Positions 44,978 to 63,562 of a stretch of DNA of 64,000 bases are shown one piece after another (within the stretch, counting starts at the first letter, position 1; each line of letters starts with the position of its first letter). The position numbers and the translations under genes are program-made. The notes under the pieces are model-generated. The model was not told the DNA's origin, made no database searches, and saw only the letters and a list, made by a program, of their open reading frames with translations. The DNA is taken from assembly GCF_054482595.1 (NCBI RefSeq), contig NZ_CM137008.1, one strand, 5' to 3'.

Positions 44978-45690
44978 TCGAAATCTTACATGAATACTGG
45001 AAACCGCTGCTGTGGACCGACGGTTATCGCTTTACTGGTGTGGCGATCACTCTGTGGCTGCTTATTTTGTCGGTAGTGATAGGCGGAGTCCTGGCGCTGT
45101 TTCTGGCGATTGGTCGTGTCTCCAGTAATAAATACATCCAGTTTCCAATCTGGTTATTTACCTATATTTTTCGCGGTACGCCGCTGTATGTTCAGTTGCT
45201 GGTGTTCTATTCCGGCATGTACACGCTTGAGATTGTTAAGGGAACCGAATTCCTTAACGCTTTCTTCCGCAGTGGCCTGAACTGTACCGTGCTGGCGCTG
45301 ACGCTTAACACCTGCGCTTACACTACCGAGATTTTTGCTGGGGCAATCCGTTCAGTGCCGCATGGGGAAATTGAAGCCGCCAGAGCCTATGGCTTCTCGA
45401 CCTTTAAAATGTATCGCTGCATTATTTTGCCTTCTGCCCTGCGTATTGCTCTACCGGCATACAGCAACGAAGTGATCCTGATGCTGCACTCTACTGCGTT
45501 GGCGTTTACTGCCACGGTGCCGGATCTGTTGAAAATAGCCCGCGATATTAACGCCGCCACGTATCAACCTTTTACCGCCTTCGGCATTGCCGCGGTGCTC
45601 TATTTAATCATCTCTTATGTCCTGATCAGCCTCTTTCGCAGAGCGGAAAAACGCTGGTTGCAGCATGTGAAACCTTCTTCAACGCACTGA
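44974..45690 (+). CDS. hisM: Histidine ABC transporter permease
   Basis: 238-aa membrane ORF. Confidence 0.92.
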
Positions 45691-45697
45691 GAATACG

Positions 45698-46471
45698 ATG
45701 TCCGAAAATAAATTAAACGTTATCGATTTGCACAAACGCTACGGCGAACACGAAGTGCTGAAAGGGGTCTCACTACAAGCGAATGCCGGAGATGTAATAA
45801 GCATCATCGGATCGTCGGGATCGGGGAAAAGTACCTTTCTGCGCTGCATTAACTTCCTCGAAAAACCGAGTGAAGGATCGATCGTGGTCAATGGCCAGAC
45901 GATCAATCTGGTGCGCGACAAAGACGGTCAACTCAAAGTCGCCGATAAAAATCAGCTGCGCTTACTGCGCACACGCCTGACGATGGTATTCCAGCACTTC
46001 AATCTCTGGAGCCATATGACGGTGCTGGAAAACGTCATGGAAGCGCCGATTCAGGTGTTGGGCCTGAGCAAGCAGGAAGCGCGCGAGCGGGCGGTGAAGT
46101 ATCTGGCAAAAGTCGGGATAGACGAACGTGCACAGGGGAAATATCCGGTGCATCTTTCCGGCGGTCAGCAACAGCGTGTTTCTATCGCGCGGGCGCTGGC
46201 GATGGAACCGGAAGTTTTACTGTTTGATGAACCTACCTCGGCGCTCGATCCTGAACTGGTAGGCGAAGTGTTGCGTATTATGCAGCAACTGGCAGAAGAG
46301 GGGAAAACCATGGTGGTAGTGACTCACGAAATGGGCTTTGCTCGCCATGTTTCTACTCACGTCATTTTCCTCCATCAGGGGAAAATAGAAGAAGAAGGCG
46401 CGCCGGAGCAGTTATTTGGCAACCCGCAAAGCCCTCGTCTGCAACAGTTCCTTAAGGGATCGCTGAAATAA
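45698..46471 (+). CDS. hisP: Histidine ABC transporter ATP-binding protein
   Basis: 257-aa ORF; Walker [10 protein letters not shown] and ABC signature LSGGQQQR. Confidence 0.95.
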
Positions 46472-46475
46472 TTTC

Positions 46476-46508
46476 CTCTCCGGTGGCTAACGCTGCCGGA
46501 GTATTTTC
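46476..46508 (+). terminator. Hairpin plus T-tract after hisP
   Basis: CTCCGG-tggctaacgctg-CCGGAG-TATTTT. Confidence 0.45.
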
Positions 46509-46667
46509 ATGGGGAATTTGCGAGTCAGCTTCCGCTGAAATGTAAAAGTTGCAGTCCGCTAAAAATACTTCTGAATTCGCTGTCCAAAGATAAAAACTGC
46601 CTGCTGCATTGGGTGTTAATCGTGGTTATTGTCGCGTCATCTTAAATTTGAGGGGTGACGGAACGCC

Positions 46668-47558
46668 ATGACAATATCGACAACTTCCACGCCGCATGAT
46701 GCGGTATTTAAATCTTTTTTACGCCATCCAGACACCGCGCGGGATTTTATTGATATTCATCTTCCCGCGCCGCTGCGCAAACTGTGTGATTTAACGACGC
46801 TTAAACTAGAACCAAACAGTTTTATTGATGAAGACCTGCGGCAATATTATTCCGACCTCTTGTGGTCTGTGAAAACGCAGGAGGGAGTGGGTTATATTTA
46901 TGTAGTGATAGAGCACCAAAGTAAGCCGGAAGAATTAATGGCTTTTCGCATGATGCGTTATTCCATTGCGGCAATGCAAAACCATCTTGATGCGGGCTAT
47001 AAAGAGCTTCCATTGGTGATCCCGATGCTGTTTTATCATGGTTGCAGAAGTCCTTATCCTTATTCACTCTGTTGGCTTGATGAATTTGCCGAGCCTGCGA
47101 TTGCCCGTAAAATATATTCATCGGCTTTTCCGTTGGTGGATATTACCGTGGTGCCGGATGACGAGATTATGCAACATCGCAAAATGGCGCTGTTGGAGTT
47201 AATTCAGAAACATATTCGTCAGCGCGATCTGTTGGGATTAGTCGACCAAATTGTTTCGCTGCTAGTTACAGGGAACACTAATGACAGACAGCTAAAAGCC
47301 CTGTTTAATTATGTATTACAAACGGGAGATGCCCAGCGTTTCCGTGCATTTATTGGTGAGATAACAGAACGCGCACCACAAGAAAAGGAGAAACTGATGA
47401 CCATTGCTGACAGATTACGTGAAGAAGGCGCAATGCAGGGCAAACACGAAGAAGCTCTGCGTATTGCTCAGGAGATGCTGGAAAAAGGATTTGACCACGA
47501 TGTCATCCTGACGCTGACCCGACTTTCACCAGACGATCTTATCGCGCAAAGCCACTAA
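46668..47558 (+). CDS. rpnB: Rpn-family recombination-promoting nuclease / putative transposase (PD-(D/E)XK)
   Basis: 296-aa [21 protein letters not shown]...YSDLLWSV...VVIEHQS...; AT-rich relative to neighbours. Confidence 0.8.
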
Positions 47559-47605
47559 CCCTGTAACACCGGGAGTTAACTGGCGGATGTTTGCAGTAAA
47601 CCACA

Positions 47606-48499
47606 TCAGCGAACGACATCCGCCAGCGCCTCTTCTAAATCGTACCAGCGAAACGCAAAACCCGCTTCTTCCAGCCGTTTAGGCAGCGCGCGTTGTCCAC
47701 CTAATACCAGTATTGAAGATTCGCCCATTAACAGCCGAATGGCGGTTGCGGGGACGCGCAAAATGGCCGGGCGATGCAGCGCTTGACCGAGCGCATGGGC
47801 AAATTGTTCATTGCGTACCGGGTAGGGCGAAACCATATTAAATGGCCCGCGCAGCTCGTTATCCAGCAGCCAGAGAATGCCGTTGACCATATCATCAATA
47901 TGAATCCAGGCCAGATACTGCCGACCAGAGCCAATCGGCCCGCCCAGGCCAAGACGAAACGGCGGCAGCATTTTACCGAGAATACCGCCATCCGGTGCCA
48001 GCACTACACCGGTACGCAGCAGGCACACTCGCGTTTTGTCACTTTGCGCCCGGCAGGCAATTTCTTCCCAGCGGGCGCAGAGTTTATGGGTAAATTCGTT
48101 ATGCGGCGGTTCCTCTTCGGTAACCACCACTTCACCTAAGTCGCCATAATAGCCCGTTGCCGAGCCGGAAATGAGTACCGACGGCGGCGTGTCGCTGGCA
48201 TTAATCAAATCGACCAGTTTTTGCGTGATATTCCAGCGGCTTTGGCAGAGACGCTCTTTTTGCTTGTGAGTCCAGCGTTTATCAGCAATCGGTTCTCCGG
48301 CCAGGTTGATTACCGCATCAACGCCGTTGAGGTTGCTTTGATCGGCAAGCCCTTGCCATAGTGTCACCCGAGGGCCGAGAACGGAACTGGCTTTCTGCGG
48401 GTTACGCGTCACTACCGTAATTTGATGGCCCAGCTCCAGCAAACGCGGAATCAAATGGCGACCAATTAATCCCGTCCCTCCGGTGATCACTATGTTCAT
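47606..48499 (-). CDS. yfcH: NAD-dependent epimerase/dehydratase-family protein YfcH
   Basis: 297-aa ORF with N-terminal Rossmann motif [12 protein letters not shown]. Confidence 0.88.
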
Positions 48500-48519
48500 G
48501 CAGCCTCCCGATATGGCGA

Positions 48520-48882
48520 TTAACGCTGCCAGCTTAAGGTCATGGATACCGAATCGGCGTAGCGCAGCGCGTGCAGTTTATCGATCTCCACTTCAGCATA
48601 CGTCACCCAGTGATGTTCACGTGCGATATCGAGCACATCCTGAGTTAATTTTTCCAGCAAAGAGAAACGGTTATTCTCTACATGCTGAATAATGTTTTTC
48701 GTTACGGTGCGATAATTCAGCGCATCGTTGATATCTTCGCTAGTGCGCGCTTTATCGGCGGGGTAGTGGATCGTCACATTGATAACAATATCCTGACGGT
48801 TGTTAATTTCTTCTTCCTTAATTCCGATAAACGTACGTAAACGAAGGTTCTTTATACGAATAATAGCGGCAGGTTGTGCCAT
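48520..48882 (-). CDS. folX: Dihydroneopterin triphosphate 2'-epimerase
   Basis: 120-aa [24 protein letters not shown]... Confidence 0.9.
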
Positions 48883-61428: not shown

Positions 61429-62646
61429 TTACAGCTGATGATAACCAGAAAGGAAACGCGCGAACTTACTCAAAGACAGCTCGATATCATCGACACGCGG
61501 TAGCGTGACAATGCGGAAGTGGTCCGGCCACGGCCAGTTGAATGCCGTCCCTTGCACCAACAGAACTTTTTCCTGCAACAGGAAATCCAGCACCATTTTC
61601 TGATCGTCGTGAATGTTAAAGCGTTTGGCGTCGATTTTCGGGAACATGTACAGCGCACCACGAGGTTTCACGCAGGAAACGCCCGGAATATCGTTGATCA
61701 ATTCCCACGCGCGGTTACGCTGCTCATAAAGACGACCGCCAGGGGTAATAAATTCACTGATGCTCTGATAACCACCCAGCGCGGTCTGAATGGCGTGTTG
61801 CGCAGGAACGTTAGCACACAGGCGCATTGAAGCCAGCATTTCCAGACCTTCGATGTAGCCTTTGGCGTGTTTTTTCGGCCCGTTCAACACCATCCATCCC
61901 TGACGGAAGCCTGCAACGCGGTACGTTTTCGACAGTCCATTAAAGGTAATGGTCAGCAGGTCAGGTGCCAGCGGCGCAATTGAGTGATGCTCAGCGTCGT
62001 CGTAGAGAATTTTGTCATAAATTTCATCGGCGAAGATAATGAGATTATGCTGACGTGCAATCTCCACAATCTCCATTAAAAGCTCTTTGGAATATACCGC
62101 GCCGGTTGGGTTATTTGGGTTGATAATAACGATCCCACGCGTACGAGGCGTAATTTTAGCGCGAATATCATCGAGGTCCGGGAACCAGTCAGAGGATTCA
62201 TCGCAAAGATAATGCACCGCTTTACCGCTGGAAAGCGAAACCGCCGCGGTCCATAGTGGGTAATCTGGTGCAGGAACCAACATTTCGTCCCCGCTGTTCA
62301 GCAATGCCTGCATTGCCTGAACGATAAGCTCCGATACACCATTGCCGATGTAAATATCTTCCACGGTAACATCACGCATGCCACGAGCCTGGTAGTGCTG
62401 CATGATGGCTTTACGCGCGGAGTAAAGACCTTTGGAATCGCAATACCCTTGAGCTGTAGGCAGGTTGCGTATCACGTCAACGAGGATTTCATCTGGCGCG
62501 TCAAAACCGAACGGGGCTGGGTTGCCGATGTTCAGTTTCAGTACCTTGTTACCTTCTTCTTCCAGGCGTTTTGCTTCTTTCAGCACCGGACCACGGATGT
62601 CATAACAGACATTCTCTAATTTGCTGGATTTTTCAATGGGGGACAT
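61429..62646 (-). CDS. alaA: Glutamate-pyruvate aminotransferase (PLP-dependent)
   Basis: 405-aa class I/II aminotransferase-type ORF. Confidence 0.9.
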   Translation of the reverse strand: MSPIEKSSKLENVCYDIRGPVLKEAKRLEEEGNKVLKLNIGNPAPFGFDAPDEILVDVIRNLPTAQGYCDSKGLYSARKAIMQHYQARGMRDVTVEDIYIGNGVSELIVQAMQALLNSGDEMLVPAPDYPLWTAAVSLSSGKAVHYLCDESSDWFPDLDDIRAKITPRTRGIVIINPNNPTGAVYSKELLMEIVEIARQHNLIIFADEIYDKILYDDAEHHSIAPLAPDLLTITFNGLSKTYRVAGFRQGWMVLNGPKKHAKGYIEGLEMLASMRLCANVPAQHAIQTALGGYQSISEFITPGGRLYEQRNRAWELINDIPGVSCVKPRGALYMFPKIDAKRFNIHDDQKMVLDFLLQEKVLLVQGTAFNWPWPDHFRIVTLPRVDDIELSLSKFARFLSGYHQL

Positions 62647-63562
62647 GAATCTTGACCTTTTTTGCTGTTATCGCCACTCCCTGCCGTGGAAGTCAGCTTA
62701 GAACAATGTACTCCCCCAGGACGGTGTTTTGAAGGTCTGCAGAATAAGATTTTGCCAGAGGGGAAGGCTCGATTGTGCTGTTAATAACTTAATAATGACA
62801 AAATAATGAGGTGTATATGCTTTACATGTAATGTTATATAGTGAATTGTTCTGATTCTTAATTGTAAGTCTGGTTTTTTTATCTGTAAGATAATTGTGTG
62901 AAAATGCCTCATTTAAGAATTCACTAATGAAACGCGATGATGATATTTCCGCATTACGGAGAGTTTAACAGCGTGATGATTTCCGAGGTGTCGCAATGGG
63001 GGCAAGGTGTGAAACTATTGTTAAGCGGAATTAATGAATGAGGATGATGCTAATTAATTATTATTTAATATTCAAAAAGGTTTTGATGTGCTTATTAATA
63101 ATAGAAGATTACTTTGCCTAACATAACATAACTTTGCATCAGATAATTCGCAATGACCCTTATAAATAAAAGGTTTTTGGGGTAAAATGCCCGCATAAAT
63201 GACGGATCCCTGCTCTTGATGCCGCCTCACCATTGCTGTTTGTACGTGTTCGCGTATGACCAGCGATGCTGCACGAGAGTGGAACAAGGACTCACATTTA
63301 CATTTATACAAACACGCGCATGTCATAAATAGAAAAGAGTGAGTAACTTAATAGATATGCGATCCCTGAAGATATATTCTGTGATCTACTTCAGGCATTA
63401 TAACGGAACAATGTGAGTCGCTTTTTTAGTGCAACTCATATGCATTTTTACTTTCGTCCGGGTTCCGGATGAAACTGCCAGGGAGGCACATTACAAATGG
63501 AATTGCTTGTTTGTGTGTGCACAGCATTAACCAGCTCAGTATGAGCCGCCAGTAAGTGATAA

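Follow-up and report, generated by a model that had tools for sequence, protein, structure and literature searches.

The stretch of DNA analysed here (the window, 64,000 nt) carries a single gene between the his transporter operon and yfcH. In the six-frame ORF list, hisP ends at 46471, and yfcH occupies 47606-48499 on the minus strand, convergent with the gene in question. The sole ATG-to-stop ORF listed between them runs from 46668 to 47558 on the plus strand and encodes 296 amino acids, the full-length RpnB_L, a PD-(D/E)XK nuclease toxin. An earlier note on this DNA had assigned positions 46480-47560 to rpnB and described the gene as standing alone between the his transporter and yfcH. The standalone position is confirmed by these coordinates. 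The assigned interval does hold the 296-aa ORF, and it also takes in the 196-nt spacer between hisP and rpnB, as its start at 46480 simply follows the hisP stop region.

Both sides of the gene carry hairpins. A hairpin of 10 pairs, 7 of them G-C, followed by TATTTTC, lies at 46478-46501 on the plus strand and forms the intrinsic terminator of hisP. It sets rpnB apart from the his transporter operon and is kept in the rpnB-less allele described below. The promoter of RpnB_L must lie within the 5′ region of rpnB at 46502-46667 (plus strand), of which 46578-46667 is absent from the deletion allele; a simple scan of this region found no plus-strand sigma-70 site. On the other side, an inverted-repeat search detected a perfect repeat of 11 bp around a 25-nt loop at 47580-47626, straddling the yfcH stop codon. 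The RNA fold of this element reaches −28.6 kcal/mol (z = −3.64), a stability matched by 0 of 200 shuffles, and the hairpin is retained in the deletion allele. No clear T-run follows it; the hairpin probably serves as a terminator for both convergent genes, rpnB and yfcH. Searching Rfam with 45600-48600 returned no RNA family at E ≤1.

By sequence, the 296-aa ORF is the E. coli rpnB (yfcI, b2305) in an intact copy. Residues 8-209, encoded at 46689-47294 on the plus strand, match the 203-position PF04754 model (Transposase_31, YhgA-like) with E=4.5e-91, and the Rpn subfamily model TIGR01784 is passed with 188 bits (cut-off 52). The N-terminal Transposase_31 domain that defines the Rpn/YhgA-like family (PF04754, TIGR01784, COG5464) is thus present in the window protein. 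Two further NCBIfam models stay below threshold, namely the RpnA equivalog (466 vs a cut-off of 583) and the ‘ISNCY family transposase’ (460 bits vs 583). The name rpnB and the assignment to the Rpn (YhgA-like, PD-(D/E)XK) family, both proposed earlier, are therefore upheld, with a similarity far beyond chance. Among the K-12 paralogues RpnA-E, RpnB is the closest, with 96% identity overall, 99.2% over residues 1-243 and 81% over residues 244-296. K-12 RpnA, RpnC, and RpnE are 51-66% identical to the window protein, and the RpnD pseudogene is 69% identical over the nuclease part. Together with its place between hisP and yfcH, this identifies the gene as the rpnB orthologue, and none of the results speaks against that identity. 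A tblastn search with RpnB found no other RpnB-like gene in the 64-kb window.

The gene is ordinary for E. coli and has already been characterised. A 1.5-kb query around rpnB found a match in 5,425 of 5,426 complete E. coli genomes, and at least 80% of the query was covered in 4,745 of them. Among the matches listed, all full-length ones in E. coli genomes carry the rpnB annotation and the hisP and yfcH flanks. The sequence of strain XH990 is 100% identical, and the ORFs of the window agree base for base with the annotation there.

The N-terminal core of the window protein shows the restriction endonuclease-like fold. As the earlier note had suggested, we aligned the window protein with RpnA-E, and the essential residues are all conserved, with the same numbering as in RpnA. 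These are D11 (46698-46700), D63 (46854-46856), E82 (46911-46913), Q84 (46917-46919), R94 (46947-46949), and the PDDEI motif at residues 163-167 (47154-47168), all on the plus strand. In RpnA, the D11A, D63A, E82A, and Q84K mutants lose all phenotypes, and D165A is hyperactive. Mg2+-dependent DNA endonuclease activity has been published in vitro for RpnA, and overexpression of K-12 RpnB is toxic and SOS-inducing. By analogy with the published RpnA and K-12 RpnB, the window RpnB would be expected to have nuclease activity, to be toxic, and to induce SOS.

A small C-terminal inhibitor ORF, whose search had likewise been proposed, is found as an in-frame internal start within rpnB. A perfect Shine-Dalgarno sequence, AAGGAG (47385-47390, plus strand), lies 6 nt ahead of the ATG of M244. 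From this start, an internal gene, rpnB_S (47397-47558, plus strand), encodes a 53-aa antitoxin (M244-H296) that has its frame and stop codon in common with RpnB_L. K-12 is identical over the 22 nt 5′ of the M244 ATG and over the opening 9 nt of rpnB_S. Moreover, the pattern (A/G)GGAG-N6-7-ATGAC at codons 242-245 is kept in all five K-12 paralogues. Zhong et al. 2023 (PMC10400941) used ribosome profiling together with chromosomal tags to show that K-12 makes RpnB_S. The same study found that K-12 RpnB_L is more toxic without RpnB_S, that RpnB-dependent SOS induction is blocked by RpnB_S and not by RpnA_S, and that a stop at ‘D29’ of RpnB_S ends the block. Counting from M244, residue 29 is D in K-12 and E in the window. 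Since the K-12 residue is D, as in the published D29 mutant, M244 is the start of RpnB_S. Thus, the name of the gene is correct, the gene has been studied experimentally, and the question of a small inhibitor has already been answered in print, with which the present sequence agrees.

Structural comparisons place the small protein in a known domain family. The crystallised RpnA_S (chain 7th0_A, 1-48) aligns over its whole length with residues 244-295 of RpnB (E=0.0026), and the RpnS part of the window RpnB is 49% identical to that of RpnA and colinear with it. Proteins near-identical to the window RpnB bear the precomputed database label PF27070 (HTH_Rpn_C). The AF2 model contains a long helix at 237-254 and three helices within 260-295, with pLDDT <50 over 245-258. 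Three marks of the gene-within-gene arrangement are therefore present: an internal start with its own ribosome-binding site, a C-terminal HTH_Rpn_C-like domain, and a hypervariable region. Matches of RpnB_S to designer pentatricopeptide-repeat proteins in the PDB (E 1e-22 to 1e-9) were rejected as an artefact, as ten repeats hit the same 28 RpnB_S residues weakly; the E values per stretch are only 7-14, and summing them inflates the score.

The ATG of the full-length rpnB has no good Shine-Dalgarno sequence; a GAGGGG stands about 15 nt upstream. With no signal comparable to that of the internal start, this arrangement would favour an excess of antitoxin. An internal transcription start site has been reported in K-12 from dRNA-seq (Zhong et al. 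2023, PMC10400941). A strict scan of the window for internal promoters returned one 9/12 site (47086-47113), and a lenient scan returned 8/12 sites at 47158 and 47285. Consensus scans located no convincing promoter for either rpnB transcript.

We consider, at roughly 90%, that the locus is best explained as an intact rpnB encoding an RpnB_L/RpnB_S gene-within-gene toxin-antitoxin that likely serves in phage defence. Under this explanation, rpnB would be a one-gene, two-protein unit. The full ORF would yield RpnB_L, a predicted PD-(D/E)XK DNA endonuclease that, if unchecked, may damage the DNA of its own cell. The second, stronger ribosome-binding site in the same frame (AAGGAG-N6-ATG) would yield the 53-aa RpnB_S. 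RpnB_S, which has the same sequence as the helical domain at the C-terminus of RpnB_L, would bind that domain and hold RpnB_L inactive. The specificity of this pairing would reside in the hypervariable stretch common to both proteins, which may decide which S fits which L. Phage infection would be the likely trigger that releases the nuclease. The sequence itself shows the ORF and the family it belongs to, catalytic residues that are intact, an internal start signal, the hypervariability, and how the gene has evolved. Neutralisation of the window RpnB_L by the window RpnB_S is expected by analogy with the K-12 allele, from which the window RpnB_S differs at 10 of 53 residues. The antiphage role of a chromosomal rpnB is suggested by the plasmid-borne RpnP2, the sole Rpn for which phage protection has been published, and by the pattern of selection on the gene. 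PADLOC-DB 2.0 has no model matching rpnB. The neighbours of rpnB are housekeeping genes and do not form a defence island; this, and the absence of the gene from about 12% of complete E. coli genomes, tempers the reading as a defence gene.

The part of the gene that encodes RpnB_S varies far more among E. coli than the part that encodes the nuclease. With a 181-nt RpnB_S query, the E. coli carriers fell into bands of 427 genomes at ≥99% identity, 463 at 95-99%, 2,279 at 90-95%, and 1,512 at 80-90%. In the same bands, a nuclease-domain control of 181 nt gave 1,948, 2,423, 349, and 0 genomes, and was never below 90%. For 14 E. coli alleles, picked to span the identity range and thus not a random sample, the mean pN was 0.064 in RpnB_S vs 0.004 in residues 1-243. 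The corresponding dN/dS values were about 0.41 for RpnB_S and about 0.05 for the nuclease part. The contrast persisted when five other Escherichia genomes were added, with the nuclease part at 0.04-0.05. These values indicate strong purifying selection on the nuclease domain, both within E. coli and across Escherichia species.

The allele alignments resolve the variation into two modules, both on the plus strand. Module 1 comprises residues 254-260 (RpnB_S 11-17; 47427-47447) and reads GAMQGKH in the window and in K-12. Other alleles read GRNDGLILGKR, a gain of 4 aa, and one pseudogene has gained 8 aa. The insertion point follows RpnB_S residue 11-12 and so falls within the published hypervariable region, where 4-aa insertions occur 8-20 residues past the RpnS start (Zhong et al. 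2023, PMC10400941). The window rpnB allele contains no tandem repeat and represents the minimal form. Module 2 comprises residues 272-283 (RpnB_S 29-40; 47481-47516). In K-12 it reads DRGLDRELVMMV, from which the window differs at 10 of 12 residues and, by hand count, at about 15 of 36 nt. Outside module 2, the rpnB of the window and that of K-12 are about 2% divergent. The window-type patch is shared with O157:H7 Sakai, where it reads EKGFDHEVILTL. Among carriers, we estimate from row spacing that the window-type patch occurs in about one-fifth, the K-12 type in about half, and the +4-aa type in about a quarter. All sampled non-coli Escherichia have an ERGLDRELV-like module 2; therefore, the window-type module 2 looks derived within E. 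coli.

Where this patch came from was also considered. A search of 4,681 E. coli genomes and of the plasmid collection turned up neither a second copy nor a donor of the window module-2 patch. The best ‘plasmid’ matches to the module-2 query are mislabelled chromosomes with a K-12-type allele. Gene conversion is unsupported as the origin of module 2, as no donor was found and, by our reading of the alignment, none of the K-12 paralogues is closer to the patch; RpnE shares 4 of the 12 residues with each of the two alleles. The patch lies in helix 2, the turn, and helix 3. Conceivably, it is a second specificity determinant apart from the 4-aa repeat site, such that at least three non-cross-neutralising RpnB ‘immunity types’ would be held in balance by phage-driven selection. 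This suggestion is tentative, and we regard it as rather doubtful. Still, ‘immunity types’ defined by module 2 are the sole loose thread worth a bench test, and the window strain carries a minimal-length RpnB_S with a divergent patch, a form outside those tested in the literature.

An uninterrupted rpnB is not universal in E. coli. A single, uniform rpnB-less allele occurs in 670 of 5,426 complete genomes (~12%), including EC958, JJ1886, JJ1887, SE15, and several strains labelled O25b:H4-ST131. In this allele, the span 46578-47579 is replaced by 27 nt. Of these filler nucleotides, 21 match rpnB codons 149-155 (47112-47132, plus strand), with 18/21 identities to the window and 19/21 to non-coli Escherichia alleles; 0 of 2,000 shuffles reached this score. 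The diverged 21-nt copy is all that is left of rpnB in the 670 genomes. At the right junction of the deletion, there is a microhomology, TTGGTGGAT / CTGGCGGAT. Because the ‘empty’ site holds a relic of rpnB, it reflects a single secondary deletion and not the ancestral state. Sporadic inactivation also occurs, since one IS1 insertion allele and one internal-stop allele were seen in E. coli. The ~12% loss, together with these occasional inactive alleles, indicates that rpnB is dispensable.

Beyond E. coli, the gene was followed in a survey with one genome for each species, limited in reach to close relatives. A full-length RpnB of 91-96% identity is present in six Escherichia records: the E. 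coli-labelled SCPM-O-B-8794 and E69, E. albertii, E. whittamii, and two further Escherichia species. E. fergusonii was not among the species recovered, an absence from which nothing follows, given the reach of the survey. The gene lies between hisP and yfcH in E69, E. whittamii, and the two further species. For E. albertii (yfcH cut off) and SCPM-O-B-8794 (hisP cut off), contig ends allowed one rpnB flank to be checked. The closest proteins outside Escherichia are 64-69% identical and sit at other paralogue loci. Two candidate orthologues were rejected on this ground: the Salmonella protein P0085 lies between feoC and bioH, which is the rpnA site, and the C. koseri protein P0106 adjoins yjiR/yjiS-like genes, like rpnD. 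No rpn gene was found at the hisP-yfcH junction of Salmonella, Citrobacter koseri, or Klebsiella. Salmonella has a 51-nt spacer without a gene there, C. koseri has one GNAT acetyltransferase gene, and Klebsiella has three genes. As the junction differs by genus and, among the genera compared, has an rpn gene only in Escherichia, rpnB would have been acquired in the ancestor of the sampled Escherichia. The comparison thus supports a genus-level acquisition at hisP-yfcH, before the sampled Escherichia species split.

The composition of the gene was also compared with its surroundings. The GC content of rpnB is 0.451 vs 0.508 for the window, at the 9th percentile of 891-bp windows. Its GC3 is 0.434 vs 0.496-0.616 in hisJ, hisQ, hisM, hisP, yfcH, folX, and yfcG, and is the lowest among the five K-12 rpn paralogues (range given 0.50-0.55). 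The AT-richer composition pointed out in the earlier note is thus real, and it is moderate, not extreme. The same note had taken it, with the standalone position, as a sign of old horizontal acquisition. The age holds, given the fixed site in Escherichia and the outgroup junctions without rpn. For the source, the sequences are consistent with either a duplicated paralogue or a foreign gene, with RpnB about equally distant from both.

The family names raise the alternative that rpnB is mobile, either an insertion sequence (ISNCY-type or ‘transposase_31’) or a transposase domesticated not long ago, and that it jumped into the spacer between hisP and yfcH. Legacy names speak for it: Pfam calls the domain ‘Putative transposase, YhgA-like’, the ‘ISNCY family transposase’ model gives 460 bits, and the Sakai record uses ‘transposase’. 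Like insertion sequences and ISNCY transposases, rpnB is also a single-gene unit of lower GC, and the K-12 paralogues, too, stand singly between conserved operons. However, the features that define an insertion sequence, that is, terminal inverted repeats, target-site duplications, and multiple or variable sites, are not those of rpnB. A repeat search around the gene found no inverted-repeat pair bracketing it and no flanking direct repeats. The copy number per E. coli genome has a median of 1 and a maximum of 2, and the one two-place genome inspected has an rpnB split by IS1. No copy of rpnB was on a plasmid, and the same site is occupied in five other Escherichia genomes (one flank checked in E. 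albertii). In addition, the ISNCY equivalog model gives a score short of its cut-off, the PD-(D/E)XK nuclease fold is not known from autonomous transposases, and the published analysis, which found no evidence of transposition, argues against it (Zhong et al. 2023, PMC10400941). A mobile element is therefore highly improbable. The earlier description of the gene as transposase-like, or derived from a domesticated transposase, goes back to legacy annotation only, and does not fit a gene that is almost always single-copy and keeps one site.

Two other readings accept a stationary gene and differ on what it does. In one, the physiological job of RpnB is RecA-independent recombination and gene acquisition, and the small protein only regulates that activity. 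Overexpressed K-12 RpnB does raise the RecA-independent recovery of recombinants 19-fold in a conjugal assay, and it has been speculated that RpnL itself may drive repeat expansion and local duplications (Zhong et al. 2023, PMC10400941). Yet deletion of rpnA, rpnB, rpnC, and rpnD left the basal recombinant frequency unchanged, and the effect requires overexpression, which is itself toxic. Strong diversification is, moreover, confined to the antitoxin/oligomerisation domain, which is typical of conflict systems and not of a housekeeping recombination enzyme. This role is unlikely in our view, and the statement in the earlier note that E. coli paralogues can promote RecA-independent recombination holds for overexpression and not for the basal level. 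In the other reading, rpnB is a selfish or decaying addiction-type cassette that brings no present benefit to the host and is kept because its loss is slow. The deletion in 670 of the 5,426 genomes (the successful ST131 lineage among the 670), the IS1-insertion and internal-stop alleles, and the absence of defence genes from the neighbourhood would all fit such a cassette. It is quite improbable nonetheless, given the low dN/dS of the nuclease domain in E. coli and across Escherichia species, the fully intact catalytic residues of the window RpnB, and the retention of the gene at a single site from before the divergence of the sampled Escherichia species. The gene is thus probably best viewed as a toxin-antitoxin of the gene-within-gene kind that probably acts against phage, and not chiefly as a recombination enzyme.

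For the toxin-antitoxin reading, the nearest known system is K-12 RpnB/RpnB_S (Kingston et al. 2017, PMC5350276; Zhong et al. 2023, PMC10400941), which has the same locus, the same length of 296 aa, the same internal SD/ATG context, and the same 53-aa frame. The difference is concentrated in the small protein, where the window RpnB_S is 81% identical to that of K-12, with nearly all of the differing residues in module 2, including the tested D29, which is E29 in the window. The biochemically characterised RpnA/RpnA_S (PDB 7TH0) agrees with RpnB in domain order, catalytic numbering, and the internal start at codon 244. It differs in being a paralogue, located at feoC-rpnA-bioH and 66% identical overall to the window RpnB, and in the published data, RpnA_S and RpnB do not cross-neutralise (Zhong et al. 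2023, PMC10400941). The plasmid RpnP2 belongs to the same family and, according to the paper, has the same L/S gene-within-gene layout. RpnP2 is plasmid-borne, whereas the window rpnB is chromosomal among housekeeping genes, and the phage phenotype has been published for RpnP2 only.

Classical type II toxin-antitoxin modules resemble rpnB in that a toxic enzyme is bound directly by a small, more abundant protein, and also in their rapid diversification and patchy distribution. Unlike in those modules, the antitoxin of rpnB would be an in-frame C-terminal isoform of the toxin and not the product of a separate gene. As an isoform of RpnB_L, RpnB_S must co-evolve with it residue for residue. Insertion sequences, which share with rpnB an older-record annotation besides the traits weighed above, differ in having terminal inverted repeats and target duplications; rpnB has neither, is nearly always single-copy, and keeps a fixed site across species. 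For work on such a unit, ST131 and the other rpnB-less genomes offer natural rpnB-minus backgrounds.

The hisP-yfcH allele that lacks rpnB is present in 670 genomes, strains labelled ST131 among them. The span absent from this allele corresponds to window positions 46578-47579, in place of which 27 nt stand at the compared locus L001 (1778-1804). Of rpnB, the allele retains a relic of 21 nt that corresponds to codons 149-155, and the right junction of the allele lies within a 9-nt microhomology. Taken together, the relic and the microhomology at the right junction show that the rpnB-less allele is the product of a single secondary deletion, as opposed to a site that was never occupied. Inactivated rpnB alleles also occur sporadically: the CREC_5 gene is split by an IS1A insertion (L015 2269-3936), and that of 14EC047 (L014 207-1121) carries an internal stop within module 1 (the variable RpnB_S residues 11-17), which is lengthened by 8 aa. 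In E. albertii rpnB, a 12-nt tandem duplication in the nuclease domain (L017 about 3385-3396) converts SPYPY to SPYPYPYPY, a repeat of 4 aa that falls outside the hypervariable region already known.

The cargo at the hisP-yfcH junction varies by genus. The Salmonella junction is empty, with a 51-nt spacer (L030 3395-3445), that of C. koseri holds a GNAT acetyltransferase gene (L032 3438-3977), and that of Klebsiella a GNAT gene and two small unknown genes (L033 3610-4999). From these comparisons, the junction looks like a recurrent insertion spot. Every K-12 rpn paralogue is a solitary gene flanked by conserved housekeeping genes or operons, in the arrangements panD-rpnC-panC (L026), glpC-rpnE-yfaU (L027), feoC-rpnA-bioH (L028), and mdtM-rpnD-yjiR (L029). 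The 61-aa ORF 3′ of K-12 rpnE is the published RpnE_Ss/YpaA.

The helix-turn-helix part (residues 13-40; window 47433-47516) of RpnB_S, the 53-aa C-terminal antitoxin isoform, is similar to the consensus pentatricopeptide repeat (PPR) GKLDEALKLFEEMVEKGIKPDV. This PPR-like part inflated the phmmer E-values of RpnB_S against designer PPR proteins. Since the single stretches were each non-significant, the match to these proteins was regarded as an artefact. A C-terminal RpnB sequence with 89% identity to that of E. coli is found in a contig of Novosphingobium sp. BW1 (L023). Because this contig is small (380 nt) and has a coverage of 0.9, the fragment most likely represents Escherichia contamination of the assembly.

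Elsewhere in the window, GC falls to 0.34-0.42, far below that of rpnB, in three stretches (4750-7500, 13000-14750, and 62250-63750). The first contains an annotated hypothetical protein gene (5700-6731, minus strand) between mlaA and fadL, the second comprises the sixA-yfcV spacer and the beginning of a fimbrial operon, and the third is located past the end of the annotated region that was compared. Downstream of the sucrose (csc) utilisation cluster, a 153-nt DUF4942 gene fragment adjoins a tRNA-Arg gene (2814-3250) and may be the leftover edge of an element integrated at tRNA-Arg.
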